A stretch of DNA of 38,061 nt from the NCBI GenBank assembly GCA_964545665.1, contig CAZJGF010000002.1:1-38061 (forward strand), in the 5' to 3' direction. Source of the stretch: an uncultured Dehalococcoidales bacterium (GTDB lineage Bacteria > Chloroflexota > Dehalococcoidia > GIF9 > AB-539-J10). Within the stretch, counting starts at the first letter, position 1, and each line of letters begins with the position of its first letter. The notes beneath the pieces were generated by a model. That model saw only the letters and a program-made list of their open reading frames with translations. It was not told where the DNA came from and did no database searches. Positions 11,877-31,334 of this stretch are shown here, piece by piece. The translations under genes were made by a program, and so were the position numbers.

Positions 11877-11906
11877 AGAAGCTAGAGGCAGCTGCCTCTA
11901 GCTTCT
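11877..11906. repeat. Perfect 30-bp palindrome AGAAGCTAGAGGCAG|CTGCCTCTAGCTTCT
   Basis: I verified base by base that the two 15-nt halves are exact reverse complements. It sits ~55 nt upstream of the candidate -35 element in the 498-bp intergenic gap. No T-tract follows on either strand. Confidence 0.9.
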
Positions 11907-12170
11907 GCAAGGCCAGCATCACAGAGAAAGACTGATCCCCGCCAGCCCAGCTGAGCTATACCCCACTCACACAGCGCGTCCTCACTCGACGTATCATCCT
12001 ATGCTGTGGACAACCCTTCTTCCGCTCAATCACCTACCACGCAATGCAAAAAGGGCTAGCCCACAGGAGGCCAAGAATGTGAAGACATTTAGCAGAAAAC
12101 ACAGATTACCAAGAATTTGCTGAGACCACGAGTCCCCTGGTAATGGACTGAATAAAGTGCGATTTCGGTA

Positions 12171-13277
12171 TTACCCGACGGCCGCGAATTCCTCCGGCCT
12201 GAATGTAGTAAGCGGGAGCCCCTCCTCCATATCTTTCCCTGGAAGATAACCATAAGCTTTCTGAACCGATTCGGCTACTCTCAAGGAAATGGCCCACAGC
12301 GGAATACTGGCGGGACACACATCAGAACACATACCACATCCCACACACGATGTGCTTACGTGGGATAGCCTCACCAGGTGGTAGAATATCGTGTCAGGAA
12401 AAGCCTCCACACTTCCCCTTCTTTCTAGCTGTGTTGCGTAGTAAACCGCATCATGTTCACTAGCCTCACTGTCGAAAAAGCATAAGTGGCAATAACAGAT
12501 GGGGCAGACCTTGCTGCAGTTGTGGCAGCCTATGCATTTGCTGAAGGCCTTGTTCAGTTCATCAATACCAAGGTTCCTTATTTCAGTTTCATCAAACAGT
12601 TTCTGCTTCTCACTCTCTCTCTGGCCCCTTATTCGTTCCATTGCTCCAGAATCGAACTCTTCTTCAGTGAACTCTCCCGACATACCTTCAAGCAAGTTCT
12701 CCCCTCTGTCAGTGTTGAGAAGTATCACCGTTTCTCTGTCAATGTCCTTGTTTCCCAGTAAGGACACGGTGATATCAGCAGTGTAAGGTATAAAATGCTC
12801 ACATGCCTTACAGGCAGGCCTTATCCCAGGACTCACTTCACCTTGTTTGACCGCTTCCCAGTATTGAGGTAGCTTTTCCTCAATCTTATCCTCGAGTGCC
12901 AGTTCCAATGGGTAGACTCCGCCACAGGTTGAGCTTATGAGTAACAGGTTGTCAGTGCTCCCCTGCTGCCGCTTCACCAGCTCTACGAATGCTCTTAATT
13001 CGCAAGGTCTTAGCACCACCGCAATCGGTTCAGTGGCTGCTTCCCTTAGAGTAAGAAGGGATAGCAACTTGCCGCTGTTTACCGGCATTAGAGGATACAG
13101 CGGCCGGGCATAGTCGAGTTCATCAGGACTGGAAATAAGGGAGTAAGCCACAGCCCCATTCTCACCGATCTTCCTCAAAGTCAAAACCCCTTCCACCTTG
13201 CCGTTCTCTAGGAGGAATTTGGCCATTTCTTTCACGCTTTGCTCTGGGCTTTCGCTCAACCTTAAGACCCTAGGCAT
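12171..13277 (-). CDS. Fe-S protein of the FlxB/FlxC / AsrA / sulfhydrogenase-beta (HydB) type
   Basis: The track ORF extends to 13343, but the ATG at 13275-13277 has AAGGAG 7 nt upstream and overlaps the upstream stop by 8 nt (ATGCCTAG). Motifs: VVLRPCELRAFVELVK, CIGCHNCSKVCPICYCHLCFFD, CVGCGMCSDVCPASIP. The family name is from memory. Confidence 0.55.
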   Translation of the reverse strand: MPRVLRLSESPEQSVKEMAKFLLENGKVEGVLTLRKIGENGAVAYSLISSPDELDYARPLYPLMPVNSGKLLSLLTLREAATEPIAVVLRPCELRAFVELVKRQQGSTDNLLLISSTCGGVYPLELALEDKIEEKLPQYWEAVKQGEVSPGIRPACKACEHFIPYTADITVSLLGNKDIDRETVILLNTDRGENLLEGMSGEFTEEEFDSGAMERIRGQRESEKQKLFDETEIRNLGIDELNKAFSKCIGCHNCSKVCPICYCHLCFFDSEASEHDAVYYATQLERRGSVEAFPDTIFYHLVRLSHVSTSCVGCGMCSDVCPASIPLWAISLRVAESVQKAYGYLPGKDMEEGLPLTTFRPEEFAAVG

Positions 13278-14427
13278 CTTGCTTCTCCTTGGCAGAAAAC
13301 ACTGAATGGGACTGCTCCACCTCCTGGAATTCGCCTTGCTCAAAAGTCGTTAACGGCAGAGCTTCGTCTATACTCCTACCAGATAGGTAACCGAAGGCCT
13401 CTTGGTTTCTATCACCAACTAGGCTGAAGATTTGCCCTACCGTGATATTCATGGGGCAGGCGTCCTCACACATCCCGCATGACACACAGGAGAGAGACAT
13501 ATGTAACATACGTCCAATATGGAAAAACAGAGTATCGCTGGGAAGCTTCACCACACCTCTTGCCTTTGCCCTCGTAAGGTAATCTTCAAAATTGAATTTC
13601 ATTTTGTCCGAATCGAAATGACACTGGCGGCAGTAACATATGGGGCAGACCCTCATACAGTTGTGGCAGTTTATGCATCTACTAAAGCTTTCTAGTAGCC
13701 TGTCTATACCCTCAATCTCGCTTCTTAGCCCGTTGTGAGACTCGTTCCTTTTCTGCTTTCTTTCCTGAGTCAGCCTCTCCACTCCACTTTCCCAACTCGA
13801 TATATTGTCCTCCATTGAAAGACCGAGCTTGCTCAAGACACTTTCGCCTTTACCGCTGCTGGGGATAAGGACCATAGTGCCATCCTTTGCACCCAAGGTT
13901 CCTACATGCAAGTCTTCAGCACCCGTGGTAGAGAATCTGTCACATATGTTGCACACTGGCCGCATAGGTTCACTATTCCAGTTCCGGGAAGCATCTCTGA
14001 ACGTCCTATCACCGTTTTCGGCGCTCGTGAAATAGTCAGATAGAGGCATTACTCCCGGGCAGTCCACAGTCACAAGGATTATGTCCTCCAGGTTTGCCTG
14101 TCCAAGCTTAGCCAGTTCAACTGTCGCCCTTGCCTCGCAGGGTCGCATCACAGCAGCAATGCTCTTGTTCCCTTTACCACGTCTGGTAATGCTAGAAATG
14201 GCTCTGGCTCCCTGAACTGGCATAATTGGAGGTAACGGAGACGCTGCTTCAAGAAGCGCCTCATCTCGGATCAGTGAGTAGGCGACTGAATCTCCTGCCG
14301 ACACCCTAGTTGGGATGAGGACAGCGTCAAAACAACCTTGGCTTAATGCTTGCTTCATAAAGTCAAGGACCCCTCTTTCCACATCCCCTTCTGACAGGTA
14401 GATTGTTCCCTTCCGAGTAGGTGTCAC
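13270..14427 (-). CDS. Fe-S protein of the FlxB/FlxC / AsrA / HydB-beta type (paralogue of 12171-13277)
   Basis: Motifs AAVMRPCEARATVELAKLGQ, CINCHNCMRVCPICYCRQCHFD, CVSCGMCEDACPMNI. GAGGAG lies 7 nt upstream of the GTG at 14425-14427; the alternative GTG start at 14442 is the one used by the track. Confidence 0.55.
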   Translation of the reverse strand: MTPTRKGTIYLSEGDVERGVLDFMKQALSQGCFDAVLIPTRVSAGDSVAYSLIRDEALLEAASPLPPIMPVQGARAISSITRRGKGNKSIAAVMRPCEARATVELAKLGQANLEDIILVTVDCPGVMPLSDYFTSAENGDRTFRDASRNWNSEPMRPVCNICDRFSTTGAEDLHVGTLGAKDGTMVLIPSSGKGESVLSKLGLSMEDNISSWESGVERLTQERKQKRNESHNGLRSEIEGIDRLLESFSRCINCHNCMRVCPICYCRQCHFDSDKMKFNFEDYLTRAKARGVVKLPSDTLFFHIGRMLHMSLSCVSCGMCEDACPMNITVGQIFSLVGDRNQEAFGYLSGRSIDEALPLTTFEQGEFQEVEQSHSVFSAKEKQDA

Positions 14428-14476
14428 GTTACAACTCCTCACATGTTCCCAATAGTTTGCTCATAAGCCCACATAC

Positions 14477-16174
14477 TTACCTTACTAGTTCCACAACTTC
14501 TTGATAGATCTGCGGGAAGCCAAAATTCTTTACACTGGCAGCTCCAGAGGGACAAGTAGCAGCACAGACCCCGCATCCATGACACAAAGCTTCGTTCACC
14601 ACTGCAATTCTCCTCACTTCGTCAAAGCTGATGGCAGAGTAAGGGCAGACTGAGATACACATTTTGCATCCAGTGCAGAAAGTCTCCGAAATTTCAGAGG
14701 TTCTCACTTCCAACTCCAACTTTCGGCCTGGAACAAGGGATGAGAGTATCTTACCTGCTGCTGCCTCTGATTGAACTATCGTCTCCGAGATATTCTTTGG
14801 CCCCTGGGCACACCCGACCACAAATACTCCCTCCACAGAAGACGCCACTGGACCCAGCAACTGGTGCTCTGCAACAGGGAAACCCTCCTCGTCCAGAGGG
14901 ATACCAAGCATTTCAGCGAACCTATTAGTATCACCGCTGGGTTCCATCGCCGGCACAAGGATTACCATATCTACTGCAAGCTCCTCTTCCGAACCGTTTT
15001 CAGTTTCGTATTTCACAGCTATTGCCTTGGTATTTTGGGTAACCGTAGTCTTCGCAGCGCGTACAAAGTTGATCCCTAAGTCCTTTGTCTCTTCGTAGAA
15101 CTTCTGGTAGGACTTCCCTGGAATGCATAGGTCTGAGTAGAGTTGAGATACCTTTACGTCGGGAAGCTGGGACTTCAACATCCTGGCAAATTTAAGTGAA
15201 TACACGCAGCACACCTTGGAACAATAGCCCTTCTCTTCTCGCCCAACACAATGGATAATAGCCACAGATTCAGGACTCTTGCCGTTTTTGAGCAGAATCT
15301 TCCCCCCACTAGGTCCGCTTGGCATATTCATCTGCTCAAATTCCAAGCTCGTATAGACATCATCACGCTTTCCGTACCCATATTGAGGGAGACCCGTTGG
15401 GTCCATCAAGTCGAAGCCGGTAGCTAAGATGACTGCTCCCACGCTTAGATTCCGCTCCCCATTTTCCCCTTTCTTCGTTACTTTTGCCTCAAAATTGCCA
15501 AAGAAGCCCAAGATTTGCTCAACCTCACTATCAGTAAGCTCTTCGATATTCTTGGCTCCTAGCAGTCTCTTCACTTCTTTTTCTATCAATACTGAGCCAG
15601 AATCCATAGCGGTAAACAGCTTGTCAAACTCCTTTACTTTGCCTCCCAAAGAAGGACTCTTCTCAACCAGATAGACCCTTCTGTCTGGGGAACCAAGCAG
15701 CTGGCTAGCCTTAATTCCGGCAATGCCACCGCCGATTATCAGCACATCGGGACAAACGTCCATCTCCTTCTTTTCCAGAGAAACTTGCCAGCGAACTCTA
15801 CTGATAGCGGCTCTTATTTGCCTTATTGCCTTTTCTGCAGCCTCTTCCTTGTCTGAGGTGACCCAGGCACATTGTTCCCTGATATTCACCATCTGCAATA
15901 GGTAGGGGTTGAGACTAGCTTCCTCACACACATTCATAAAAGTCATTTCGTGCTGCTTAGGAGAACAGGCTGCAAGCACCAAATGGGTCAAGTCATGCTC
16001 CTTGATGCTTTGCTTTAGGAATTCCTTCCCAGCCTCAGAACACAAGAGCCCGTATTTCTCGACAATTGCGACATCACGAAGCGGCGAAACAGCTTCAATT
16101 ACTCTATCAATATTCACATTGTCGGCTATATTAGTGCCACACTCGCATACATATACGCCTATCCTTTTTCCCAT
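14477..16174 (-). CDS. hdrA: HdrA-like flavoprotein: N-terminal [4Fe-4S] domain + TrxR-like FAD fold + C-terminal 2x[4Fe-4S] ferredoxin, but no inserted ferredoxin domain
   Basis: 565 aa. IGVYVCECGTNIA, VLIIGGGIAGIKAS, IIHCVGREEKGYCSKVCC, C-terminal CTGCKMCISVCP...CHGCGVCAATCP. The segment where HdrA normally has TFPTNDC..C plus the inserted ferredoxin is replaced by Cys-free sequence. Confidence 0.8.
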   Translation of the reverse strand: MGKRIGVYVCECGTNIADNVNIDRVIEAVSPLRDVAIVEKYGLLCSEAGKEFLKQSIKEHDLTHLVLAACSPKQHEMTFMNVCEEASLNPYLLQMVNIREQCAWVTSDKEEAAEKAIRQIRAAISRVRWQVSLEKKEMDVCPDVLIIGGGIAGIKASQLLGSPDRRVYLVEKSPSLGGKVKEFDKLFTAMDSGSVLIEKEVKRLLGAKNIEELTDSEVEQILGFFGNFEAKVTKKGENGERNLSVGAVILATGFDLMDPTGLPQYGYGKRDDVYTSLEFEQMNMPSGPSGGKILLKNGKSPESVAIIHCVGREEKGYCSKVCCVYSLKFARMLKSQLPDVKVSQLYSDLCIPGKSYQKFYEETKDLGINFVRAAKTTVTQNTKAIAVKYETENGSEEELAVDMVILVPAMEPSGDTNRFAEMLGIPLDEEGFPVAEHQLLGPVASSVEGVFVVGCAQGPKNISETIVQSEAAAGKILSSLVPGRKLELEVRTSEISETFCTGCKMCISVCPYSAISFDEVRRIAVVNEALCHGCGVCAATCPSGAASVKNFGFPQIYQEVVELVR

Positions 16175-16185
16175 TTCGCAACCTC

Positions 16186-17466
16186 TTATCTTGACAATGA
16201 TAGTAGTCTTCCCACTGCAGCCTCTGCCTGAGCCACTGTGTCTGGAATATCTTTGGGCCCCTGGGCGCAGCCGGCAACAAATATACCCTCTCTTATTGTA
16301 TCGACAGAATCAAGGTCTGGTTCCTTTTCGCTGAAAAAGCCCCCGTCACCTTGGGGAATACCCAACATCTCCGCCAGTTCCAATGAGTCGACCGCCGGTT
16401 CTAGTCCAGGTGACAAGATTATCATGCTCACACTGAGAGTATTCTCCTTGCCATCTTCAGTCTTGTAGTTAACACGCAGTCTCTCCCCTGATTCCGAGAC
16501 TTCGGTTACCGTGGCGCGAATAAAATCAACGCCGCTTTCTCGCACCTCTCTATAGAACCTCTGATAGGCTCTGCCTGGTATAGACAGATCAGAGTAGAAT
16601 TGAGATATCTTTACTTCGGGTAACTTATCCTTAATGAAGCGTGCTAGCTTGGCGGAAGACATGCAACATACTGAAGAACAATACCCCTTTTCCTCCCGCC
16701 CCACGCAATGGATGATCGCCACTGACTCTGGTGCTTTGCCATTGCGGAGAACAATCTGCCCCTGCGTAGGTCCATTGGAGGCACAAATTCTCTCAACTTC
16801 TATGTCAGAGTATACATTGTCAAATTTCTTGTACCCATATTGAGTAATCTTGCTGAGGTCAAGCGGTTTGAAGCCAGTAGCTACCAAGATACCCCCAACG
16901 TTAAGTTCGAGTTTCTCATCCTCCTGCGCGTAATCAATAGCCTCAAACATACAGGCTTCTTGACAGGCCTGGCAATCTTTCCCATTGAAACGGAGACAAT
17001 TTTGAGTATCAATGGCCGGGACGTTGGGCAGAGCCCCAGCACAGGGAATATATATTGCCTTTCTCTTGGTCAGTCCCTCCTCAAATTCGTTGTCCACCTC
17101 CACCGGGCAGGGCTCAAGACAGGCGTTGCATCCAATGCAGTTCTGCATGTCGACATACCTCGCCCTTTTCTTCACTTTCACCGTGAAATCCCCTATGGAA
17201 CCTTCCACAGCCTCAACCTGACTAAGCGTTAGCAGCTCAATGTTCTCATTTTGCAGCAACTCCTGTTGCTTCGGCGCTATCATACAGGTGGCACACTCCA
17301 TGTTAGGAAATACCTGCTCGAACTTTATTACGTTGCCACCAAAGTAACAGTTCTTCTCAACTAGATATACTTTGGCCCCAGAATTGGCCAGAAGCAGACT
17401 TGCTTCAATGCCAGCAATCCCAGCCCCAATCACCAGCACCCGCCTGTCCTCTCCCTTGTTTTCCAT
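16186..17466 (-). CDS. hdrA: HdrA core flavoprotein with inserted ferredoxin domain, lacking the N-terminal Cys domain and the C-terminal ferredoxin
   Basis: 426 aa. VLVIGAGIAGIEAS, FPNMECATCMIAPK, CIGCNACLEPCPV ... CQACQEAC, IIHCVGREEKGYCSSVCC, GIFVAGCAQGPKDIPD. Confidence 0.8.
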   Translation of the reverse strand: MENKGEDRRVLVIGAGIAGIEASLLLANSGAKVYLVEKNCYFGGNVIKFEQVFPNMECATCMIAPKQQELLQNENIELLTLSQVEAVEGSIGDFTVKVKKRARYVDMQNCIGCNACLEPCPVEVDNEFEEGLTKRKAIYIPCAGALPNVPAIDTQNCLRFNGKDCQACQEACMFEAIDYAQEDEKLELNVGGILVATGFKPLDLSKITQYGYKKFDNVYSDIEVERICASNGPTQGQIVLRNGKAPESVAIIHCVGREEKGYCSSVCCMSSAKLARFIKDKLPEVKISQFYSDLSIPGRAYQRFYREVRESGVDFIRATVTEVSESGERLRVNYKTEDGKENTLSVSMIILSPGLEPAVDSLELAEMLGIPQGDGGFFSEKEPDLDSVDTIREGIFVAGCAQGPKDIPDTVAQAEAAVGRLLSLSR

Positions 17467-17490
17467 TATTACCTGTTACCTCCGTCGCTC

Positions 17491-17925
17491 TCATAATAGG
17501 GCCTTTCCCAAGCGACTTGGCCCCAACTTTCTTACCTGCTCGGCAAACCGGTTAGTTACCTCAGCAAACCTCTGCCCTTCTGATGCTGAAACCCAGGCTA
17601 GCATAAACCTTTCCGGTTCCAGTCCCAGCGTTTCCACCGTTTTCTCCAAAAGAGCAAACCTACGGCGAGCATAGTAATTTCCCTCTCGGTAGTGGCAATC
17701 GCCTGGGTGGCACCCAGCAACAAATACCCCGTCAGCCCCCCGTAGGTATGCAGTAGCCATGAGAGCCGGCTCCACCCTTCCAGAGCACATTACTTTGATA
17801 ATCGAAACGGAACCAGGCACCGTTTGCTTCGTTGCCCCAGCAAGGTCAGCAGCCGCATATGAGCACCAGTTGCAGAGGAACCCAACTATCTTGGGTGTGA
17901 ATTCTCCCTCCATGGATATGCCCAC
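17491..17925 (-). CDS. mvhD: MvhD, copy 2
   Basis: 144 aa. FLCNWCSYAAADLAG, VMCSGRV, AGCHPGDCHY. Start uncertain (GTG at 17925 or ATG at 17913). Confidence 0.85.
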   Translation of the reverse strand: MGISMEGEFTPKIVGFLCNWCSYAAADLAGATKQTVPGSVSIIKVMCSGRVEPALMATAYLRGADGVFVAGCHPGDCHYREGNYYARRRFALLEKTVETLGLEPERFMLAWVSASEGQRFAEVTNRFAEQVRKLGPSRLGKALL

Positions 17926-17928
17926 AAA

Positions 17929-18153
17929 CTAGAACTGTATCTGTGCCTTGAACTTTCCTCCCCCCTGGTCAGCGCAGAACAGCAATGTCTTTTTCATCCT
18001 GGCACACCATGCTTCAATATCCTTGGGGAAAGACTCACAATCAGCCAGCACTTCTAATGTATCTCCAGCGGGAATACTCTTGGCCATCGCTGCCACTTTC
18101 AGTACCGGCTGGGGACACTTAAGTCCCAGTACATCCAAAGTGTGTAGTGCCAT
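17929..18153 (-). CDS. tusA: TusA/SirA-family sulfurtransferase
   Basis: Conserved LGLKCPQPVLKV (Cys-Pro-x-Pro) motif. The ATG at 18151-18153 has AGGAGG 5 nt upstream (the track starts at GTG 18159). 74 aa. Confidence 0.8.
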   Translation of the reverse strand: MALHTLDVLGLKCPQPVLKVAAMAKSIPAGDTLEVLADCESFPKDIEAWCARMKKTLLFCADQGGGKFKAQIQF

Positions 18154-18176
18154 GTTCACCTCCTAATTATTTCAGT

Positions 18177-18530
18177 TTAGAAAGAGAAAGTTATGGTGGC
18201 GTCTGATATCGAGGCCAAAAACGTAGTTGCCCCGACAATTTCCACGCCCTCCCTAAAGTCATCGGCTTTAAGGTCCTTGGCATCTAAGGCTAGCTCACAG
18301 ACTAGAATTCGGCCACCCAGATCACGTAGGCCCTGGTATAATTCCACAATGTCCGGCATGCCCTTGGCCTTGATTTTCTCCAACTCGCCTTTCACCATGG
18401 CAGGCGCACCCCCGGGACAGAAAAACACGATCACATCATCGCCGAGGGATGCGGCAGACGAACCGAGAATCATACTTGGGAAAACATTACTGGGTGCGGA
18501 ACCGTTAACTGTAATCGCTACCTTGGCCAT
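18177..18530 (-). CDS. DsrE/DsrF-family (DsrE-like) small sulfur-relay protein
   Basis: 117 aa with size and pattern of DsrE-like proteins (MAKVAITVNG..., FFCPGGAP, ILVCELAL). GGAGG SD. 17 nt upstream of tusA. Confidence 0.6.
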   Translation of the reverse strand: MAKVAITVNGSAPSNVFPSMILGSSAASLGDDVIVFFCPGGAPAMVKGELEKIKAKGMPDIVELYQGLRDLGGRILVCELALDAKDLKADDFREGVEIVGATTFLASISDATITFSF

Positions 18531-18634
18531 GATTCACCTCCTTTCTTGCGCTACAACTTGGAACAGGTACAGTGCTTTATTTGCCTGCCGCTGCTTCCAT
18601 AGCTCTCCACCAGCGGCAAATGTTGGTCGCAGGC

Positions 18635-20780: not shown

Positions 20781-20781
20781 T

Positions 20782-24253: not shown

Positions 24254-25224
24254 TTGCTTATCTCGGTCCCAACAACGGGCCGCTCCTTCACTCGCTCTAC
24301 AAGCTTGTTTTTTGTCTCTGGATCTAGACCTGGAATGATTTCAAAAATTGACTCAGGGGGTTGACGCTGCATAAGGTGATGGATAGTTCTGAGGGGTATG
24401 TCCACAGGACAAGTTTCTTCACACATGCCGCAGTTAATGCAGCTATCGCCAATGCGGTAAGCTCTTATTATGTGAAACAGGGGCACAGCGGGAGGTATTT
24501 CGCCGGGGGCAATCCACTCCGGGTCTTCCAGCTCAGTCTCACCGTAAATCCATACGGGGCAGACATCACAGCAGCCAAAGCACTTTATGCACTTGCTGAG
24601 TTCCTTCTGCCAGAAGTCTGCTCGTGACTCTTCGTCCATCAGGGCCACCCGCTGGGCCAATATCTCAGGCTCCCTTCCTTCTCGTTCCTCAGGAGGAAGT
24701 TCAACAAATCTTCGCCTCTCGAAGGCAACATTGGTCATGGCATGCCTTTCCTTGTTTTCCTCAACACAGGCCTGGGTGCATTCTCCGCACTGGACGCAAC
24801 TTGTCTCGTCTATTTTGATTCGGTCAACCCATATTTCCCCTTCAAACTCCTTCGAGCCATCTAACTCGGTCTGAGTGCACTCCCCGCACCCGGTGCATTT
24901 ATCCCAATCAACGTGTGTTGCCTTCCTCTTGACTTTGACATGGAAATTTCCTTCCTCTCCTGATACTCCCTCCACCTCGGAATAGGTCAAAAGCTCTATG
25001 TTAGGATGCTGGCTTGCCTCTATCATCTTGGGGGCAAGAATACACATAGCACAGTCATTAGTGGGGAAGGTCTTATCTAGCTGTGCCATCCTCCCCCCAA
25101 TACTGGGAGTCTTTTCCACCAAATACACCTTGAACCCCATATTAGCCAGATCGAGAGAAGCTTGAATCCCAGCTATCCCACCGCCAATCACCAAGACCGA
25201 TTTATGTTCATTTTCCCGGTTCAC
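24250..25224 (-). CDS. Chimera: N-terminal (FAD-binding) half of HdrA fused to the C-terminal Cys-rich half of a FlxB/AsrA-type protein
   Basis: 324 aa. VLVIGGGIAGIQASLDLANMGFKVYLVEK, TFPTNDCAMCILAPK, KCTGCGEC, then CVQCGECTQAC, CIKCFGCCDVCPVW, LFHIIRAYRIGDSCINCGMCEETCPVDIP. The latter part parallels CINCHNCMRVCPICYC...LFFHIGRMLHMSLSCVSCGMCEDACP of ORF 13270-14427. GTG start with a 4-nt overlap. Confidence 0.7.
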   Translation of the reverse strand: MNRENEHKSVLVIGGGIAGIQASLDLANMGFKVYLVEKTPSIGGRMAQLDKTFPTNDCAMCILAPKMIEASQHPNIELLTYSEVEGVSGEEGNFHVKVKRKATHVDWDKCTGCGECTQTELDGSKEFEGEIWVDRIKIDETSCVQCGECTQACVEENKERHAMTNVAFERRRFVELPPEEREGREPEILAQRVALMDEESRADFWQKELSKCIKCFGCCDVCPVWIYGETELEDPEWIAPGEIPPAVPLFHIIRAYRIGDSCINCGMCEETCPVDIPLRTIHHLMQRQPPESIFEIIPGLDPETKNKLVERVKERPVVGTEISK

Positions 25225-26375
25225 TTGTCGCCTCCTAAGGCGTTTGCTACCAGATTTACCAAATCCATAACTTCAATTTTTGGCATTACCCGCTTCTCTT
25301 CCCCTTTGTCTACCATAGCGCATCTGAAATGGATTTGACATTTGGGACAAGAGGTTATAAGCATCTGCGCTCCAGTCGAAGCTGCCTCAGACAACCTCTC
25401 TGTCCTTATCATGTTGGAATATGAGTCGCAATTGGTAAAGGCGCTGGTTCCACAACAAATAGAATCCCATCCGCTATGTTCCATCTCAAGAAACTCTACC
25501 CCTGGAATAGAACCCAGCACCTTTCGGGGTGCATCATAGACACCTAGATGTCTTCCTAATCTACAAGGGTCTTGATAAGTTACCTTCTTATCAATCCAGT
25601 TAAACTTAGCCTCCCCTTTCTCTATCTTCTCAGCTAAGAATTCAGAGATATGTTGTAACTCGCAATCCACACTAAACCCATGATTGGGGTAGTCTAGCTT
25701 GAATGTCCGATAGCCCTCAGGACAGGAAAAGATTATCTTTTTCACCCCAGCCTCTTTTATTAGTTTTGTGTTATGTTCGGCTAAGCTCTTGAAGGTCTCC
25801 ACATCCCCGGTCCAAAGCACATCATGCCCACAGCATTTCTCATCTGGAAGCAATTTGGGCTCTATTCCGAAAAAGTTTAAGATTCTTAAGCTTGCCTCAG
25901 TGATATCAAGAGCCCTAAACTCAATATCCTCAAAGACAGGTTCAAAATATGGAGCGCATCCAACCCAGAACAGGACATCGGAGTCGTCAGAGATACGATA
26001 TTCTTTGGATAGCCATTCCAATCTTCTCTGCTTAATGTCAGGACTTGTCATAAGTCGTGCCAAGGATTGCAGTTGCCCCGAGTGGGCATAAATTCCATGC
26101 TGTCCATTATCTTGGGCTATAGCTCGGGCTTGGCGAATGAAAATAGGAAAATCAACATCGCAGGGGCATCTCTGCTGGCAGGTATAGCAAGTTAAGCAAG
26201 AAAAGAGTTTTTGGTTGAAGACCAATACATCCTCAAATCCCAAAAGGGCGTCTTCAATTATCGCCCGCGGAGAGAAAGATGGATCATATCTGGCAACAGG
26301 GCATACACTAGTACACTTGCCGCATTCCAAGCAGTAATAAGTCTTGGTTTCCTGAATAATGTCTTCTAAATTCAA
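25221..26375 (-). CDS. HdrD-like protein (fused HdrC-type 2x[4Fe-4S] + HdrB-type double CCG domain)
   Basis: 384 aa. CLECGKCTSVCP, CLTCYTCQQRCP, then CCG motifs EKCCGHD and SICCGTSAF with SCPKCQ. TTG start with a 4-nt overlap with mvhD. Confidence 0.75.
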   Translation of the reverse strand: MNLEDIIQETKTYYCLECGKCTSVCPVARYDPSFSPRAIIEDALLGFEDVLVFNQKLFSCLTCYTCQQRCPCDVDFPIFIRQARAIAQDNGQHGIYAHSGQLQSLARLMTSPDIKQRRLEWLSKEYRISDDSDVLFWVGCAPYFEPVFEDIEFRALDITEASLRILNFFGIEPKLLPDEKCCGHDVLWTGDVETFKSLAEHNTKLIKEAGVKKIIFSCPEGYRTFKLDYPNHGFSVDCELQHISEFLAEKIEKGEAKFNWIDKKVTYQDPCRLGRHLGVYDAPRKVLGSIPGVEFLEMEHSGWDSICCGTSAFTNCDSYSNMIRTERLSEAASTGAQMLITSCPKCQIHFRCAMVDKGEEKRVMPKIEVMDLVNLVANALGGDK

Positions 26376-26830
26376 ACCGCTACTTCTTCCCTCCTTAAAG
26401 CTGAAAAGGGTGAGGGGCCCAGTTTCTTAAGTTGGTCGACAAATTCCTCAACTACTCTGGCAAACACTGTTCCCTCAGAAGTAGATATCATTTCACGCCT
26501 CAGCCTTTCATCCTCTAAGCCAAGGGTGTGGACTAGCCTCTTTAGCTTGGCGAACATGGCATCACACTTTACCGGCCCATCAATGTAATGGCAGTCGGTG
26601 TATTTACACCCAGCGACTATAACTCCATCAGCTCCTCTTTCAAAGGCTCTAAGGACATAGTCAGGATTTATCATTCCACTGCACATTACCCTTGCAATAT
26701 AAACATTGGGAGGGTATTGGACCCGGCTTGTGCCGGCCAAATCAGCTGCAGCGTAAGTACACCAGTTGCAGGCAAAAGCAATAATCTGCGGCTCAAATTC
26801 AGCCACGGTAAGCCTCCAGTAAGCCATCAA
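26372..26830 (-). CDS. mvhD: MvhD, copy 4
   Basis: 152 aa. FACNWCTYAAADLAG, VMCSGMI, AGCKYTDCHY. Start is TTG at 26830 or ATG at 26827; it overlaps the hdrL 3' end by ~30 nt. Confidence 0.85.
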   Translation of the reverse strand: MMAYWRLTVAEFEPQIIAFACNWCTYAAADLAGTSRVQYPPNVYIARVMCSGMINPDYVLRAFERGADGVIVAGCKYTDCHYIDGPVKCDAMFAKLKRLVHTLGLEDERLRREMISTSEGTVFARVVEEFVDQLKKLGPSPFSALRREEVAV

Positions 26831-29800
26831 CCAAGCTATCTATTTCCTGCATATTGAAATGCCTGATTGACATTGCTCCCGTCGGGCAAACAACGGCACA
26901 CGCCCCACATCCTTTACACAGGGCTTCATTTACGCTGGAGACCAAAAAAGTCCCATCCTTGCTAATAATCGTGGGAGCGTGGAAGGTGCAAATTTCCTCA
27001 CAGCGTCCACATCCATGACAAATGCTTTCATCCACTTGGGCTATGGCTGCCTCAGTGGTTACCTTGCCTCTGCTTATTAACGACAAAGCTTTGGATGCTG
27101 CGGCAGAAGCCTGGGCCACAGTATCAGGGATGTCCTTCGGTCCGGCACAGCAGCCAGCGATGAAAACTCCGTCTGTGGGCGTGTTTACCGGAGCAAGCTT
27201 GGGATGCGTTTCCAAGAAGAAGCCATCGGCTCTCTGACCTATGGTAAAACGACTGGCGATATCGGCTGCATCAGACCGAGCTTGCAGAGCAGCACAGAGG
27301 ATAACCATATCCACCGGGACACGGATCATCCTCCCCAATAAGGTATCCTCAGCCAAGGCAACTAATTTCCCTCTCTCCTCTTCACTTATGGCCTGATCGG
27401 TTATCTTTGCCACCTTGCCTCGGATAAAATTGACTCCCATTTCCGAAACGTGCTGGTAGAATTCCTCATAGGCTTCTCCAAAGCACCTCATGTCAATATA
27501 GAATTCATATACATCGGCCTTGGTAAACTCTTTTATCAGCTCTGCATACTTGAGACCATACATGCAGCAAACCCTGGAGCAGTACTCATGGTAGTTTTTG
27601 TCTCGACTGCCGACACAGTGTACTATGGCTACACTTCCCGGTTCTCTGCCATCCTTAAGTTGAATTCGCCCCTGAGTTGGCCCGCCAGCACACGTTATCC
27701 TCTCAAATTCAAGTCCGGTTAGAACATTATCATACTTCTTATACCCGTATTGAGTCATGACACTGGGATCAAACTGGTCATAGCCAGTAGCCAGAATGAT
27801 TGAGCCTACCTCTACCTCAGCAAACTCCTCTTCCATGCCATGGTTAATCGCCCCTTGCTCACAGACCTTCAAGCACTCCAAACATTCCGAGCATACGCCA
27901 CAGTTGAGACAGCGTTTAGCCTCCTCTACGGCTGTTTCTTCGTCAAAGCCTTGTTCAACCTCAGCAAAGGAGCTTTTTCTCTGGTCAAGGCTAAGCAGCG
28001 GCATGCTGGCTCTTGCCTTTGGTTTGACTCCTTCCGTCGATACCTGTTCTACCTTTTTGGACGCTATTTGTCTTCCCTCGGTTAGGCTAATACCTTTCAG
28101 ATATCGATCGATAGAAATAGCTGCCTCTTTGCCGGCGGCGATGGCTGCAATTACGTCACCGGGGCCGGAGACCGCGTCGCCACCGGCGAAAACGCCATGG
28201 ATGTTTGTTTGCAAGGTAGGAGGGGCGACTTCAAGGGTGCCCCAACCAGTATAGTCCAATTCTTTAGGCAGCATTGTCTTATCCACAGCCTGACCAACAG
28301 CGATGATAAGATTGTCCACATCCATGGTGAACTCTGAGCCTTTGATGGGTACCGGACGGTTACGGCCGCTAGCATCAGGCGTGCCCAACTCCATCCTGAT
28401 ACACTCAATAGCTGTCAATTGACCATCCTCGGATAGGATTTTAACTGGCCCCGCCAGGAAGTGGATCTTGACTCCTTCTCGCTTGGCTTCCTCAACCTCG
28501 GTCCCGATAGCAGGCATTTCAAGCTGAGAGCGGCGATAGACTACAGTCACCTCTTTAGCCCCAAGGCGTGAAGCTAATCTAGCAGCATCGATAGCGGCGT
28601 TGCCGCCACCAATGACTACCACCCGCTCCCCTAAACTAATCTTCACGCCAGAATTTGCCATTCTGAGAAAGTCGAGGGCATGGATTACTCCGCCTGTTTC
28701 TTCACCAGAGACTCCTGTCTTTTGGCTTTCCTGACAACCGTTGCCTAGTAAAATGGCTGTATATCCCTGGTTGAAGATCTCGCCGATGTCTTTAACTGGC
28801 GTATTTGTCCTGATCTCAACCCCCAGTTCTTGTATGTAATTTATCTCGTTATCCACTATTTCTTTGGGCAATCTGTATGCGGGGATGCCATACCTTAGCA
28901 GGCCACCTGGCTGAGGAAGTGCCTCGAACACAGTGACTGCATAACCCTCCCTAACCAAATCGTAAGCACAGGCAAGTCCGGCAGGGCCAGAGCCAACAAT
29001 AGCCACTTTACCCTCTTTTGTCCTTTCAACTGGAGCTGCTCTTTCCCTCCTGAGCCTCAGCTCATAATCAGCAATGAAGCGCTTCAGGCTTCGAATGGCG
29101 ATGGATTCGTCAAACCGCCCTCGCTCGCAGTCCAGTTCACAAGGATGCGTACAGACCCGTCCAACAACCCCGGCAAAAGGCATTGTCCTTCTGACTACTT
29201 CAAGGGCTTCTTTGAACTTGCCCTGGGAAATAAGTGCGACATAGCCTTGAGCATTGACTCCAGCGGGACAAGCAATGCGGCACGGCGCGGTGCCTCTCTT
29301 GTCAATGGCAAAAGCGGCAGGGACAGCTTGGGGGAGGGGAAGATAAGCTGCCTTTCTCATGTGCAGGCCCATTTCAAACTCGTCAGGCACCTCAACAGGA
29401 CATACTTTGGCGCATTCCCCACATGAGTTACATTTAACAACGTCCACATACCTGGGCTTCTTCCTCACTTTGACTTTGAAATTGCCGATATAGCCTGAAA
29501 CCTCTTCTACTTCGCTAGAGGTCATTAATTCGATGTTAGGGTGATGACCGACGTCGGTCATCTTAGGTGTGAGAATGCATTCCGAACAGTCCAAAGTAGG
29601 GAAAGTCCTGTCAAGCTGAATCATATGTCCACCAATGGATGGTTCCCGTTCCACTACATAGACTTTCTTGCCCCCATCAGCGATATCTAAAGCAGCCTGA
29701 ATTCCAGCGATGCCGCCGCCCACAACCAAGACATTAGGATTCACTGGAACTTCCTTAATCTCCAGAGGCTCATGCCAGTAAACGCGCCTTATTGCAGCGC

Positions 29801-30167
29801 GTACAAGAGCCTTGGCCTTCTCTGTAGCTCGCTTCTTGTCTGCAGCATGGGGCCAAGAACAGTGCTCCCTGATATTGGCATGCTCATATAAGTAAGGATT
29901 TAACCCGGCATCTTGGCAAGCTTTGCGGAACGTAGGTTCATGCATCCTTGGTGAGCAGGAAGCAACCACAACTCGATTGAGCCCTAGCTCTTTGATATCA
30001 TTTTTGATGAGATCCTGCCCGGGATCCGAGCACATATACCTGTAGTCACGCGAAATCACTACATTAGGCAAGGTTGTCGCATATTTGACCACCTCCTCAC
30101 AATCCACTGTACCGGCAATATTTAATCCACAGTGGCAAACGTATACTCCGATCTTTACCTCTTCCAT
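26799..30167 (-). CDS. hdrL: Large HdrA-type protein (HdrL-like): complete HdrA with a GltD/NfnB/SudA-type NAD(P)H:FAD module inserted in the inserted-ferredoxin domain
   Basis: 1122 aa. HdrA parts: IGVYVCHCGLNIA, VLVVGGGIAGIQAA, TFPTLDCSECILTPK, CNSCGECAKVCP, [insert], CLNCGVCSECLECLKVC, VHCVGSRDKNYHEYCSRVCC, C-terminal CHGCGRCEEIC...CKGCGACAVVCP. The insert (aa ~290-750, nt ~27918-29300) reads CRIACPAG...GRVCTHPCELDCERG, KVAIVGSGPAGLACAYDL, RVVVIGGGNAAIDAAR, GVFAGGDAVSGPGDVIAAIAAGKEAA. Confidence 0.8.
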   Translation of the reverse strand: MEEVKIGVYVCHCGLNIAGTVDCEEVVKYATTLPNVVISRDYRYMCSDPGQDLIKNDIKELGLNRVVVASCSPRMHEPTFRKACQDAGLNPYLYEHANIREHCSWPHAADKKRATEKAKALVRAAIRRVYWHEPLEIKEVPVNPNVLVVGGGIAGIQAALDIADGGKKVYVVEREPSIGGHMIQLDRTFPTLDCSECILTPKMTDVGHHPNIELMTSSEVEEVSGYIGNFKVKVRKKPRYVDVVKCNSCGECAKVCPVEVPDEFEMGLHMRKAAYLPLPQAVPAAFAIDKRGTAPCRIACPAGVNAQGYVALISQGKFKEALEVVRRTMPFAGVVGRVCTHPCELDCERGRFDESIAIRSLKRFIADYELRLRRERAAPVERTKEGKVAIVGSGPAGLACAYDLVREGYAVTVFEALPQPGGLLRYGIPAYRLPKEIVDNEINYIQELGVEIRTNTPVKDIGEIFNQGYTAILLGNGCQESQKTGVSGEETGGVIHALDFLRMANSGVKISLGERVVVIGGGNAAIDAARLASRLGAKEVTVVYRRSQLEMPAIGTEVEEAKREGVKIHFLAGPVKILSEDGQLTAIECIRMELGTPDASGRNRPVPIKGSEFTMDVDNLIIAVGQAVDKTMLPKELDYTGWGTLEVAPPTLQTNIHGVFAGGDAVSGPGDVIAAIAAGKEAAISIDRYLKGISLTEGRQIASKKVEQVSTEGVKPKARASMPLLSLDQRKSSFAEVEQGFDEETAVEEAKRCLNCGVCSECLECLKVCEQGAINHGMEEEFAEVEVGSIILATGYDQFDPSVMTQYGYKKYDNVLTGLEFERITCAGGPTQGRIQLKDGREPGSVAIVHCVGSRDKNYHEYCSRVCCMYGLKYAELIKEFTKADVYEFYIDMRCFGEAYEEFYQHVSEMGVNFIRGKVAKITDQAISEEERGKLVALAEDTLLGRMIRVPVDMVILCAALQARSDAADIASRFTIGQRADGFFLETHPKLAPVNTPTDGVFIAGCCAGPKDIPDTVAQASAAASKALSLISRGKVTTEAAIAQVDESICHGCGRCEEICTFHAPTIISKDGTFLVSSVNEALCKGCGACAVVCPTGAMSIRHFNMQEIDSLVDGLLEAYRG

Positions 30168-30185
30168 ATCTACTCCAGCTTGTCG

Positions 30186-31334
30186 CTACATTGCCTCCTG
30201 AACTAATTCTGTAATATCCTTGATTTCAATAGTTTCGCCCTTATCCACTCTCAACTGACTATCTTTCAACATGCACATACAATAAGGACAGGCAACAGCT
30301 AATACCTCGGCTCCAGTTGCCAGAGCTTGTTGTAATCTAAGGTCGGCAAATCTTTCCTCTCTCCTGACACCCATCCATATGCCTCCCCCTCCGCCACCAC
30401 AACAAAGACTGTTTTCCCCGAAATCCGACATTTCAACCAGCTCGAGACCAGGAATGCTCCTTAGGACCTCCCGAGGCTCATCATATATGCCGTTATGCCG
30501 ACCAAGGTAGCATGGATCATGATATGTAACCCTCTTATTCAGTTCCTTGGTAGGCTTTATCCTCTGCTCCTTAATGAGTTCTAATAGAAGCTGGGTAGAA
30601 TGAATCACTTCAAATTTGCCTCCGAACTCCGGGTATTCATTTTTGAAAGTGTGATAGCAATGGGGCGAAGAAACAAGGATTTGCTTGACGCCGCTCTCAA
30701 CAAAAGCAGCAATATTGTTCCTTGCTAGCATTTCGAATACGTCTTCATTTCCCAACTTACGGGTGCTCTCACCACAGCAATTTTCTTTACTGCCCAAGAT
30801 GCCAAAATCCACTTGCGCCTTTTTCAGGATATCCACTGTAGCGAGGGCTATCCCCCTCTCCGCCGGTTCATATATGGAGAAGCAACAAGGGAAAAACGAT
30901 AGTGCAGTGCCCGGACCAGATTTCTTCACTCCCAAACCCTTAGCCCAGTCATCCCGCTTTCCCGGCTCCTGACCGAATGGATTGCCCGCACCAGCGATAT
31001 TCTTGACTGTGATTCGAAGGGCATCAGGAACAGCGCCAACGCCTAAACTAACTACAGCTCGGCGCAACGCCCTCATAATGTCGATTATCTCTACGCCACG
31101 AGGGCAGCTCTGGACACAAGCCCGACAAGTGGCACAAAGCCACAGCTCATCACTCTCAAAATCTGTCGCGCCAAGCTGGGCCTCGTGAATAATACGGCGA
31201 ACAATAAAGCTTCGAACCAGATTCCAGGGACAATTAGCAGTGCAAATGCCACATTGGTAACACAATCTCAGAGGGTCACCACCAGCCTCTAGTATCACGT
31301 TTGTGGCTTCTTTGTAAGGAGCTAGCACCTGCAT
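30186..31334 (-). CDS. HdrD-like protein (HdrC-type ferredoxin + double CCG domain), first gene of the long operon
   Basis: 382 aa. CYQCGICTANCP, CATCRACVQSCP, ENCCGES, SLCCGGGGG, ACPYCMCM. Weak SD; the start is taken from the track. Confidence 0.75.
   Translation of the reverse strand: MQVLAPYKEATNVILEAGGDPLRLCYQCGICTANCPWNLVRSFIVRRIIHEAQLGATDFESDELWLCATCRACVQSCPRGVEIIDIMRALRRAVVSLGVGAVPDALRITVKNIAGAGNPFGQEPGKRDDWAKGLGVKKSGPGTALSFFPCCFSIYEPAERGIALATVDILKKAQVDFGILGSKENCCGESTRKLGNEDVFEMLARNNIAAFVESGVKQILVSSPHCYHTFKNEYPEFGGKFEVIHSTQLLLELIKEQRIKPTKELNKRVTYHDPCYLGRHNGIYDEPREVLRSIPGLELVEMSDFGENSLCCGGGGGGIWMGVRREERFADLRLQQALATGAEVLAVACPYCMCMLKDSQLRVDKGETIEIKDITELVQEAM

Follow-up and report, generated by a model that had tools for sequence, protein, structure and literature searches.

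The 38,061-nucleotide stretch of contig CAZJGF010000002.1 from an uncultured Dehalococcoidales bacterium (hereafter the window, always meant at its full length) carries 16 minus-strand genes for heterodisulfide reductase (Hdr)-type redox proteins, named here G1 to G16 in their order of transcription from position 31334 to 12171. One HdrA of this cluster is encoded in two halves on either side of the gene for the formate dehydrogenase subunit FdhA (G5-G6-G7), and this orthologous HdrA slot accepts, in the window and in related loci (given L-numbers), either FdhA with remnants of FdhB, NuoEF-like proteins, an NfnB-like module, or nothing. We read the island as three separate HdrA-based modules for flavin-based electron bifurcation, with an H2-fed bifurcation that would lead to CO2 and formate; for this reading we consider the chances to be even. 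Identities of the parts come from Pfam, NCBIfam and PDB sequence searches, and the taxonomy of related loci is that of the labels on metagenome-assembled genomes (MAGs).

An HdrA split around FdhA and its exchangeable insert

The N-terminal half of the split HdrA is G5 and the C-terminal half is G7 (Table 1). G5 corresponds to positions 139-302 of the NCBIfam HdrA2 model, and its residues 174-303 resemble the C-termini of G15 and G16 (blastp 7e-12 and 2e-14), two FdhB/FrhB-family proteins encoded at the end of the cluster. G7 covers positions 242-563 of the HdrA model (NCBIfam), with residues 133-474 matching residues 242-568 of the HdrA structure 5odc_A. Ahead of this part lies an N-terminal domain of about 125 residues. 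Plain blastp detected no similarity of this N-terminus to G15 or G16, but profile and fold comparison did. Residues 20-118 align to the N-terminus of G16 (hhalign, 84% probability, E 7.7e-6). An AlphaFold2 (AF2) model of residues 1-135 alone, with a predicted local distance difference test score (pLDDT) of 82 and a predicted template modelling score of 0.74, found as its top structures the FdhB chains 8rvu_E (E 1.7e-5) and 7bkb_E (template modelling score 0.65, root-mean-square deviation 1.9 Å, 107 columns), followed by FrhB, HCAR and Fsr. The AF2 model of full-length G7 is mediocre (pLDDT 64.6, below 50 in the ferredoxin region), and the fold search with it returned HdrA and disulfide reductases only. 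The gene in between, G6, scores 924 bits on the FdhA model TIGR01591 (cut-off 666) and has the motifs CPFCGCGC, for the N-terminal [4Fe-4S] cluster, and ARLCHAS, with cysteine at the selenocysteine position. Judged from these alignments and the model, FdhA is bracketed by both ends of an FdhB-type protein, each end being fused to one half of the HdrA. The middle of FdhB, which binds flavin adenine dinucleotide (FAD) and F420, is missing from G5 and G7, and the split point lies within the inserted-ferredoxin domain of HdrA. An intact FdhB of the methanogen type (FAD and four [4Fe-4S] clusters) is not found next to FdhA: only the FdhB-N-like domain of G7 and the FdhB-C-like domain of G5 are there, and the full-length FdhB-like proteins G15 and G16 sit eight genes away. 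The original prediction had counted formate among the linked substrates; it had missed that the FdhA gene interrupts an HdrA within the inserted-ferredoxin domain, and this changes the likely role of FdhA.

The flanks of the slot are orthologous in L022, L009, L008, L011 and L012, where the neighbours corresponding to G4 and G8 are 75–84% and 78–85% identical. The HdrA scaffold is orthologous as well: its N part (G5 residues 1-118) is 79–82% identical to the slot variants of L022, L012 and L005, and its C part (G7 residues 137/186-474) 74–77% identical, compared with only 62–66% (N part) and 33–48% (C part) for the same segments against the paralogue G2. The insert itself is an NfnB/GltD-like module in one open reading frame (ORF) in L022, L009, L008 and L011, a series of three ORFs (NuoE-like, NuoF-like and 2Fe-2S) in L005, a NuoE-like protein with a NuoF-GltD fusion in L012, and the FdhA cassette in the window and in L003, L004, L010, L007, L074 and L076. 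One of the latter, the 'Syntrophaceae' locus L007, is a 3.8-kb contig that may be misbinned. All four states, including unsplit proteins of 436–441 amino acids, occur among the best 120 homologues of G7, whose sole annotation is 'heterodisulfide reductase subunit A'. The FdhA triad is retained where the orthologues of G5 and G7 are 47–59% and those of FdhA 73–74% identical; it stands in the compact order hdrA-mvhD-hdrC-hdrB-[hdrA'N-fdhA-hdrA'C]-mvhG-mvhA-hycI in L074, and in the order HdrD-[triad]-HdrA in L076. Selenocysteine read-through is unlikely as the origin of the split HdrA, because what separates the halves is a complete FdhA gene that has a start of its own and because the three-gene arrangement recurs at this distance. 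In a limited literature search we did not find described an HdrA split into two genes around FdhA or NuoEF, FdhB remnants on the halves of HdrA, or an exchange of cassettes within a scaffold that is orthologous elsewhere.

Exact copies of the G7 protein were found by exact-protein look-up on 2–4 kb metagenome contigs of the Joint Genome Institute only, and the nearest genomes are Dehalococcoidia MAGs, L003 being 82% identical across the whole of G7. The metagenome contig L048 has 95.1% nucleotide identity to the window over 21 kb and is collinear with it from fdhA to the DUF3786 gene. Gene order is largely kept in L003, L049 and L055 too, at 55–86% protein identity. The comparison of gene order called for by the original prediction thus bore out a conserved order, within a cluster that is composite and not one unit (see below). 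This collinearity, complete in L048 and extensive in the other three, points to selection on the gene order rather than chance.

Complementary HdrA paralogues in a composite cluster

As had been predicted, there are five HdrA equivalents in six ORFs: G2, the split G5/G7, G8, G13 and G14. They are real relatives of HdrA and not unrelated flavoproteins, the E-values against methanogen HdrA structures in the PDB being 1e-62 to 1e-146. A GxGxxG FAD motif marks the start of the thioredoxin-reductase-like domain in G2, G5, G8, G13 and G14, with Pyr_redox_2/FAD matches in Pfam. The [4Fe-4S] signature CxGxR(D)x6-8CxxCC was found by regular expression in G2, G7 and G8, and by reading in G13 and G14, in the form CVGREEKGYCS.VCC. 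The NCBIfam HdrA scores, 191–840 bits, are all under the cut-offs of 1100–1400. Only G2 has the full four-domain architecture of HdrA. For the long G8, alignment with M. wolfeii HdrA (5odc_A) is confined to positions 1-234 and 308-650, and EATK stands in place of CSIC. The long G14 matches G2 by blastp in the same discontinuous manner (residues 4-235 and 243-556 against 5-237 and 785-1109), and its motif DSGSV has S and V at the positions of Cys194 and Cys197. The short G13 spans positions 139-556 of the HdrA2 model (NCBIfam) and carries the motif CATC. Both G5/G7 and G13 keep the CxxC motif and the inserted ferredoxin, and neither has the terminal domains. Such complementarity in the tandem HdrA of anaerobic methanotrophic archaea (ANME) was taken to mean obligate heterodimers, the argument being that the N-terminal cluster in one protomer has Cys197 of its partner as a ligand (Chadwick 2022, PMC9012536). 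Because the domain losses are complementary here also, the HdrA proteins would, by analogy, most simply form three separate dimers, each with its own MvhD (G2 with G2, G5/G7 with G8, and G13 with G14), instead of five equivalent units.

The remaining parts listed in the original prediction (three MvhD, two fused HdrCB proteins, FdhA, TusA and DsrE) were recovered in the Pfam, NCBIfam and PDB searches, and the absence of certain others was confirmed: no separate HdrB, separate HdrC or FlxA-like protein is encoded among the annotated minus-strand genes of the window. G2 is an HdrL, with a GltD/NfnB-like insert within HdrA and mvhD (G3) as the next gene. Its residues 5-301 correspond to positions 1-301 of the HdrA2 model, residues 290-787 to a GltD/NAD(P)-binding model, and residues 759-1119 to positions 300-653 of the HdrA model (all NCBIfam). 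The NAD(P)-binding model PRK12771 scores 530 bits (cut-off 516) between the two HdrA halves, the Cys197 motif is CSEC, and this NAD(P)H module, which had been noted, is the only one in the 16-gene set. An HdrB with two complete CCG motifs and a separate HdrC, typical of Mvh-Hdr, are replaced by the fused HdrD-like proteins G1 and G4. The best NCBIfam match of G1 is TfrB-like and under its cut-off, and the first CCG domain of G1 lacks the last Cys of its CxxC. Residues 5-93 of G4 match the HdrC structure 5odc_C (3.8e-15), and its CCG part matches 9ojn_A (3e-28). The adjacency of G8 and MvhD recurs in L042, L049, L056/57 and L074. With the gene at 11247..11672, the window has four MvhD genes (G3, G9, G12 and this one).

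G15 and G16 had been labelled FlxB/C-like. They are better named FdhB/FrhB-family proteins, this being the family against which the label was set: G16 matches the FdhB chains of Fdh-Hdr and Elp-Hdr structures 9t1s_M (1.1e-39), 8rvu_E (5.1e-28) and 7bkb_E (1.3e-27), and the two are paralogues, 38% identical over their full length.

The genes form 16 successive minus-strand ORFs from 31334 to 12171, and the ORF listing contains no sizeable plus-strand competitor. Junctions were recomputed from plausible start codons and Shine-Dalgarno motifs. The recomputation agrees with what had been described: all junctions are overlaps or gaps of at most 34 nt, with the sole exception of 104 nt (18531-18634, G9/G10), and 4-nt overlaps with GTG or TTG starts occur at G3/G4, G4/G5 and G5/G6. 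G3 probably starts at GTG 26806. For G16 the most likely start is ATG 13277, because a Shine-Dalgarno motif is found there and TTG 13343 would overlap G15 by 74 nt.

Continuous as it looks, the cluster is, judged from synteny, a conserved core (G1-G9) that is functionally continuous with mvhDGA, plus an inserted accessory block (G10-G16), because these two parts occur independently in other genomes. The core has the order HdrD-HdrL-MvhD-HdrD-[variable HdrA]-HdrA-MvhD and continues into mvhDGA in relatives. The block, DsrE-TusA-MvhD-short HdrA-long HdrA followed by two FdhB-like proteins, is separately conserved, being found in L049, L052, L055, L057, L063 and L065/66 down to 43–56% identity. 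It stands without the core in L052 and L065, and core and block are convergent in L057. A second TusA and a YeeE/YedE sulfur transporter lie inside the block in L049, L055 and L057, the last of which has a two-domain rhodanese in addition. The block is absent from L003, L006, L009 and L011: in L006 and L009 the G8 orthologue is followed almost at once by mvhDGA, and an NfnB-like gene precedes mvhDGA in L003 and L011, accompanied by an NfnA-like gene in L003. The 104-nt spacer at the boundary between core and block is the least conserved segment in comparison with L048 (88.5%), and its length differs in L049 and L055.

Two further observations concern this modularity. In L003, the stretch 13125-15407, directly upstream of mvhDGA and in place of G9-G16, encodes an NfnA-like protein (DHODB_Fe-S_bind) and an NfnB-like protein (Fer4_20 and Pyr_redox_2), a pair that constitutes a further interchangeable redox module at this position. 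The more distant metagenome loci L058/L059/L068 (about 5000-16000) encode an HdrL-like protein, three MvhD, homologues of G15 and G16, an HdrC-like protein and a short and long HdrA pair, and they also carry a distant FdhA-like molybdoenzyme (32% identity). Since these modules are strung together there, still larger concatenations exist.

Proposed electron flow and competing explanations

Cryo-electron microscopy of methanogen complexes has shown that the two terminal domains of HdrA move as a unit with the donor arm (Mvh, Fdh or Elp, with MvhD), which feeds electrons to the flavin of the partner protomer; FmdF binds at the inserted-ferredoxin domain of HdrA, where electrons are anticipated to leave (Nomura 2025, PMC12350162). 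In the present cluster, the identities, domain losses, split point, exchange of cassettes, synteny and co-occurrence of Mvh are directly seen. As to the binding partners, the direction of electron flow and the substrates or acceptors, we infer the following. Module A1 (G1-G4) would consist of the complete HdrL with its NfnB-like NAD(P)H module, MvhD and the HdrD-like CCG proteins. Module A2 (G4/G5-G9 and the downstream mvhDGA) would be built on an asymmetric HdrA heterodimer. In this pair, G8 would give the N- and C-terminal domains and carry the donor arm (MvhD G9 and MvhAG), and G5/G7 would give Cys197, the flavin-adjacent [4Fe-4S] cluster, the active flavin and the pair's only inserted-ferredoxin domain, i.e. 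the exit; the cluster of G5/G7 would lead to a CCG protein (G4 or G1). MvhAG would oxidise H2, and MvhD would pass the electrons to the flavin of G5/G7. One electron would travel uphill through the clusters of the inserted ferredoxin and the FdhB remnants to FdhA, for the reduction of CO2 to formate, and the other downhill through the HdrD-like CCG protein to a disulfide-type acceptor, or possibly to methylene-tetrahydrofolate via MetFV. The whole path would be reversible in principle. We connect the hydrogenase-fed HdrA to CO2 and formate because FdhA sits at what is the low-potential electron exit domain of methanogen Hdr. Module B (G10-G16) would be Elp-like: its two FdhB-like proteins would accept electrons from a hydride carrier (F420H2 in archaea) and pass them to MvhD (G12) and then to the HdrA heterodimer of G13 and G14. 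The presence of TusA and DsrE suggests a protein-bound persulfide or thiosulfate-derived sulfur as the substrate of this module. The persulfide acceptor of the original prediction is plausible, as a link to sulfur, for G10-G16 only (TusA, with a second TusA, YeeE/YedE and rhodanese in relatives). A more specific version of the scheme, which we put forward tentatively and hold to be rather unlikely, has G5-FdhA-G7, G8, MvhD and HdrD with MvhAG acting as a hard-wired bifurcating H2:CO2 reductase. The low-potential electrons would then never leave as ferredoxin, and the downhill electrons would go to methylene-tetrahydrofolate (through MetFV and a CCG protein) or to a thiol carrier.

Several points weigh against an H2-fed bifurcation to formate of this kind. 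The NAD(P)H-type modules (about -320 mV) in the same slot of relatives would be odd acceptors for very low-potential electrons, and the slot could instead be where electrons come in, or could serve differently in different variants. Formate in methanogens is a donor that enters by FdhB-MvhD, and FdhA could equally be a donor here. We know of no thiol/disulfide carrier for Dehalococcoidia. The subunit pairings are drawn from gene adjacency and from analogy to archaeal structures, and the split HdrA of L074 retains N- and C-terminal domains, so that the distribution of domains is not fixed. The HdrD-like G1 and G4 are not close to HdrB: their first CCG motif is incomplete, and a PDB search with G4 gave no HdrB structure at E 1e-3. 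Consensus scans for promoters and terminators from 11000 to 32900 gave counts no higher than the shuffled expectation, i.e. at chance level. Moreover, metFV lies ~7 kb off, beyond two hydrogenase operons, and adjoins Hdr genes in some relatives only.

Formate could be the donor, FdhA passing its electrons through the clusters of the FdhB remnants and the inserted ferredoxin to the HdrA flavin, for the reduction of a disulfide together with ferredoxin or protons (via Mvh, giving H2). The system would be a bacterial methanogen-like Fdh-Hdr, or a confurcating formate/H2 interconverter. FdhA is reversible, and the NADH- and NADPH-type modules in the same slot of relatives are more natural as donors. 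The methanogen FdhAB-MvhD-HdrABC complex oxidises formate (Buckel and Thauer 2018; structures 7bkb and 9t1s were matched here), and for marine Chloroflexi a use of formate through HdrBCA-MvhD-FdhBA has been suggested (Sewell 2017, PMC5736913). However, the methanogen donor enters via FdhB, MvhD and the terminal domains of HdrA, not via the inserted-ferredoxin exit. The window and L074 both encode a complete donor arm (MvhD, MvhAG and a terminal-domain partner), FdhA occupies the only inserted-ferredoxin domain of the pair, and G5/G7 are without the FAD/F420-binding middle of FdhB. We regard formate as donor as a real possibility whose chances are clearly below even. That all 16 products are made from one transcript and join in one megacomplex linking formate, NAD(P)H, ferredoxin and a disulfide or persulfide, as the original prediction had it, is improbable. 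In its favour, neighbouring genes abut closely, some with 4-nt overlaps, L048 keeps the entire gene order and L049 and L055 keep nearly all of it, and assemblies in the megadalton range are formed by methanogen Hdr systems. Against it, G10-G16 are lacking in L003, L006, L009 and L011, the two blocks are on opposite strands in L057, and L052 and L065 have G10-G16 alone; conservation is lowest and variability highest at the 104-nt junction; and the complementarity described above defines three HdrA dimers, each sufficient in itself and provided with an MvhD.

The sulfur genes raise the question of whether G10-G16, or even all 16 genes, make up a system of dissimilatory sulfur metabolism, either for sHdr-like sulfur oxidation or as a Qmo-like donor for sulfate/sulfite reduction. 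In favour are TusA and DsrE in the window, the additional YeeE, TusA and rhodanese of relatives, and the pair of short and long HdrA, which is like QmoA/QmoB in outline. The window is nevertheless without HdrB1/B2, HdrC1/C2, a lipoate-binding protein, QmoC, AprAB and DsrAB. With the QmoC model of NCBIfam, G1 reaches only 56 bits (cut-off 300), the best matches of G13 and G14 are methanogen-type HdrA and not Qmo, and MvhD with FdhB-like partners typifies reductive, bifurcating Hdr systems. Within the sHdr set (hdrC1B1A-hyp-hdrC2B2, LbpA, TusA, DsrE), only TusA and DsrE are found, with no HdrB/HdrC pair and no LbpA in the window, and family searches gave no HdrE/QmoC-type membrane subunit or AprAB among its annotated genes. 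We consider such a system very unlikely, and the sHdr sulfur-oxidation and QmoABC identities are rejected since their defining subunits are absent from the window.

Genomic surroundings, related systems and significance

The whole window is a redox and Wood-Ljungdahl island rather than an isolated operon, since the flanks of the cluster carry hydrogenases, metV/metF, receiver-type genes and moaA/moaC-MOSC (Table 1). Ending the operon at 12171, as had been done, cuts off the Mvh hydrogenase, which in relatives belongs to the same conserved cluster: synteny of mvhG and mvhA with the hdr core is seen in L003, L006, L009, L011 and L074, and MvhD, MvhA and MvhG are all encoded in the window.

Table 1. 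Features of the window, from the upstream to the downstream side of the cluster. Junctions are to the following gene, in nt (+, gap; -, overlap).
Feature	Coordinates	Strand	Description	Junction
Third, divergent HdrD/GlpC-like protein	37056-38060	-	ORF runs to window end; two CxxCxxCxxxC, CCT and CPWC; weak Fer4_9 match only	
Sigma-54 DNA-binding domain only, 367 aa (amino acids)	35662-36765	-	No AAA+ enhancer-binding protein visible nearby	
Receiver fusion protein, 746 aa	32820-35060	-	Receiver + NfnB/GltD-like FAD-NAD(P)H oxidoreductase + 2x[4Fe-4S] ferredoxin	
Receiver-domain protein	31742..32770	-	Pfam Response_reg; no known output domain	
G1	30186..31334	-	HdrD-like: HdrC-type 2x[4Fe-4S] + two CCG; Pfam CCG 1.9e-33 and Fer4	+18
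G2	26799..30167	-	HdrL: complete four-domain HdrA, NfnB/GltD-like NAD(P)H-FAD module in inserted-ferredoxin domain	-8 (GTG with GGAGG) or -32
G3	26372..26830	-	MvhD; Pfam FlpD 1.5e-48	-4 (TTG)
G4	25221..26375	-	HdrD-like: HdrC-like N-terminus + two CCG; Pfam CCG 2.2e-26	-4 (GTG)
G5	24250..25224	-	Split HdrA, N-terminal half: FAD-binding thioredoxin-reductase start with Cys194/197, ferredoxin-like segment, FdhB-type C-terminal 2x[4Fe-4S]	-4 (GTG)
G6	22202..24253	-	FdhA, molybdo/tungstopterin catalytic subunit, Cys type; Pfam Molybdop_Fe4S4, Molybdopterin, Molydop_binding	-8
G7	20782..22209	-	Split HdrA, C-terminal half: FdhB/FrhB-type N-terminal domain, inserted ferredoxin, remaining thioredoxin-reductase domain with CxGxRD...CC	+1
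G8	19053..20780	-	Long HdrA with N- and C-terminal ferredoxin domains, without inserted-ferredoxin domain and Cys194/197	-14 (GTG)
G9	18635..19066	-	MvhD; Pfam FlpD 1.7e-53	+104 (18531-18634)
Spacer	18531..18634		104 nt, boundary of core (G1-G9) and accessory block (G10-G16); largest internal gap	
G10	18177..18530	-	DsrE-family sulfurtransferase-like; Pfam DrsE_2 1.5e-12, DsrE 5e-10	+17 or +23
G11	17929..18159	-	TusA sulfur carrier; Pfam TusA 1.3e-17; CPxP cysteine, LKCPQP	+3
G12	17491..17925	-	MvhD; Pfam FlpD 4.2e-51	+24
G13	16186..17466	-	Short HdrA: thioredoxin-reductase domain, inserted ferredoxin, Cys194/197; without N- and C-terminal domains	+11
G14	14477..16174	-	Long HdrA with N- and C-terminal domains, without inserted ferredoxin and Cys194/197	+34
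G15	13270..14442	-	FdhB/FrhB-family Fe-S protein; weak FrhB_FdhB_C match, 2x CxxCxxCxxxC	-8 if G16 begins at ATG 13277
G16	12171..13277	-	FdhB/FrhB-family Fe-S protein; Pfam FrhB_FdhB_C 6.6e-12	
Gap	11673..12170		498-nt non-coding, between G16 and mvhD	
Fourth MvhD	11247..11672	-	Pfam FlpD 7.3e-54	
MvhG-like NiFe hydrogenase small subunit	10262..11242	-	Pfam Oxidored_q6	
MvhA-like NiFe hydrogenase large subunit	8796..10265	-	Pfam NiFeSe_Hases	
Hydrogenase maturation protease	8307..8789	-	Pfam HycI	
Second NiFe hydrogenase	5229-8128	-	Small subunit (group-1-type C-terminal domain), large subunit, own protease; between mvhDGA and metVF	
MetV-like protein 1	4585..5235	-	Pfam DUF5981 / MTHFR C-terminal 6.6e-34	
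MetV-like protein 2	3762..4493	-	Pfam DUF5981 3.6e-31	
MetF, methylene-tetrahydrofolate reductase	2804..3733	-	Pfam MTHFR 3.8e-44	
DUF3786 gene	within 2131-5235	-	Alongside both metV-like genes and metF	
moaA and moaC-MOSC fusion	178-2081	+	Molybdenum cofactor synthesis	

The 498-nt gap between G16 and mvhD probably holds the end of the operon and a promoter or leader of mvhDGA. It is 93.8% identical to L048 overall, and its core (11900-12110) 98.6%, versus 90.7% for the adjoining coding DNA of G16. It contains a perfect 13-bp inverted repeat, GAAGCTAGAGGCA / TGCCTCTAGCTTC, at about 11872-11907, two weak terminator-like hairpins and the tRNA-like 5' string GGGGTATAGCTCAGCTGGG; ARAGORN and Rfam searches gave no tRNA or RNA family match in the window, this gap included. 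The second NiFe hydrogenase is probably cytoplasmic, because its small subunit has no twin-arginine signal. A link of MetV-like protein 1 to the Hdr cluster is possible: in L009 a MetV homologue immediately follows the G8 orthologue, and in L053 one is close to G15/G16. MetV/MetF are near such genes in L009, L049, L053 and the window; MetV was not seen there in L003, L011 and L074. The moaA and moaC-MOSC genes fit the cofactor need of FdhA. On the other side, the receiver-domain protein immediately upstream of G1 is found in the same place in L003 (82%) and L008 (73%). Its C-terminus has two copies of a Cys-rich motif, C-x9/10-C-x5-C-x2-C, and it may regulate the cluster by sensing redox state or metals. 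The neighbouring receiver fusion has a 70%-identical homologue between mvhA and the protease gene in L009, which suggests a phosphorylation-controlled redox enzyme tied to Hdr/Mvh genes. The CCT and CPWC motifs of the protein at the window end resemble a CCG domain.

With the methanogen Fdh-Hdr(-Fmd) and Mvh-Hdr complexes (7BKB, 5ODC, 9T1S) the cluster has in common the HdrA cluster signature, MvhD, an Mvh-type NiFe hydrogenase, and FdhA with FdhB-type proteins. The complex 7BKB also provides a precedent for an inserted-ferredoxin exit wired directly to a CO2-reducing enzyme (FmdF in 7BKB). In contrast to these complexes, the present system is bacterial, fused and divergent HdrD-like proteins stand in for HdrB/HdrC, and incomplete paralogues would pair up as an HdrA heterodimer. 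FdhA would be off the donor arm, being placed inside a split HdrA at the exit domain, and of FdhB only the two ends are left, each fused to one half of HdrA. A coenzyme M/coenzyme B (CoM/CoB) pathway is not expected here, and no CoM or CoB genes are present in the window. The ANME clusters share multiple HdrA paralogues, complementary loss of Cys197 and N-terminal domain in tandem HdrA, NfnB-like insertion in the inserted-ferredoxin domain, HdrD-like proteins, and clusters with FdhAB or FdhB alone. They are archaeal only, and the parts of that study available to us describe no HdrA split around FdhA or NuoEF and no association with TusA/DsrE/YeeE (Chadwick 2022, PMC9012536). The HdrL-MvhD loci of Desulfobacterium autotrophicum likewise have an HdrA/glutamate-synthase-type fusion followed by MvhD, fused HdrCB, and fdhB with or without fdhA; there they are scattered over nine sites and use selenocysteine, whereas here they are concatenated, of the Cys type, and joined by the split-HdrA/FdhA unit (Strittmatter 2009, PMC2702500). 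Module B is like the Elp-Hdr of Methanothermobacter marburgensis, in which an FdhB homologue without catalytic FdhA and an MvhD homologue feed HdrA (Nomura 2025, PMC12350162; 8RVU). G16 would be of the ElpB type (the 8rvu_E match above), G12 of the ElpC type, and G13/G14 the HdrA. Unlike Elp-Hdr, module B has two FdhB-like paralogues, a putatively heterodimeric HdrA and attached sulfur-carrier genes, and no ElpA-like gene (a truncated FdhA) or HdrBC-like gene is found among G10-G16. The Wood-Ljungdahl context, with MetF and MetV on the same strand, is shared with MetFV-HdrABC-MvhD of Moorella thermoacetica and hdrABD-mvhD-metVF of marine Chloroflexi (Sewell 2017, PMC5736913). So are fused HdrCB, MvhD and a complementary double HdrA (fused into one in Moorella). 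Different from these systems are the distance of metVF from hdr and the added hydrogenase, FdhA and NAD(P)H modules. Desulfovibrio FlxABCD-HdrABC is similar in its MvhD-like subunit (FlxD), HdrA and NAD(P)H link, and is set apart by FlxA, by separate HdrB and HdrC, and by the family of G15/G16. All components of the cluster and some of its design principles have already been published, namely HdrL (Desulfobacterium), Hdr-MetFV and Hdr-Fdh clusters (marine Chloroflexi), heterodimeric HdrA and NfnB insertions (ANME) and Elp-Hdr.

Hdr-type electron bifurcation is the route of strict anaerobes to very low-potential electrons. To our knowledge, almost no hdrA cluster outside methanogens has a known substrate or wiring. 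The hosts of the present cluster are Dehalococcoidia of the subsurface, abundant and uncultured, which are presumed to depend on the Wood-Ljungdahl pathway where H2 is very low. In them, one orthologous HdrA scaffold (74–82% identical) carries four exchangeable states at a point known from cryo-electron microscopy as the electron exit. The window and its relatives are unusually easy to read in this respect, and the comparison of the slot leads to concrete, testable predictions on the pairing of subunits and on where formate/CO2, NADH and NADPH connect. Should FdhA be the acceptor, this would explain how reduction of CO2 to formate is driven at the H2 levels of sediments, and would bear on the second acceptor of Hdr-MetFV enzymes. 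Should it not be, the cluster would still be a well-documented bacterial parallel to the Hdr diversity of ANME. A hard-wired H2:CO2 reductase, if true, would give bacteria an equivalent of the methanogen Fdh-Hdr-Fmd supercomplex, with a coupling of the first and last reductive steps as in the Wolfe cycle, and would suggest what the second acceptor of Hdr-linked methylene-tetrahydrofolate reductases, missing for so long, could be. The exit domain of HdrA would then be an evolvable socket for FdhA, NuoEF or NfnB cassettes.

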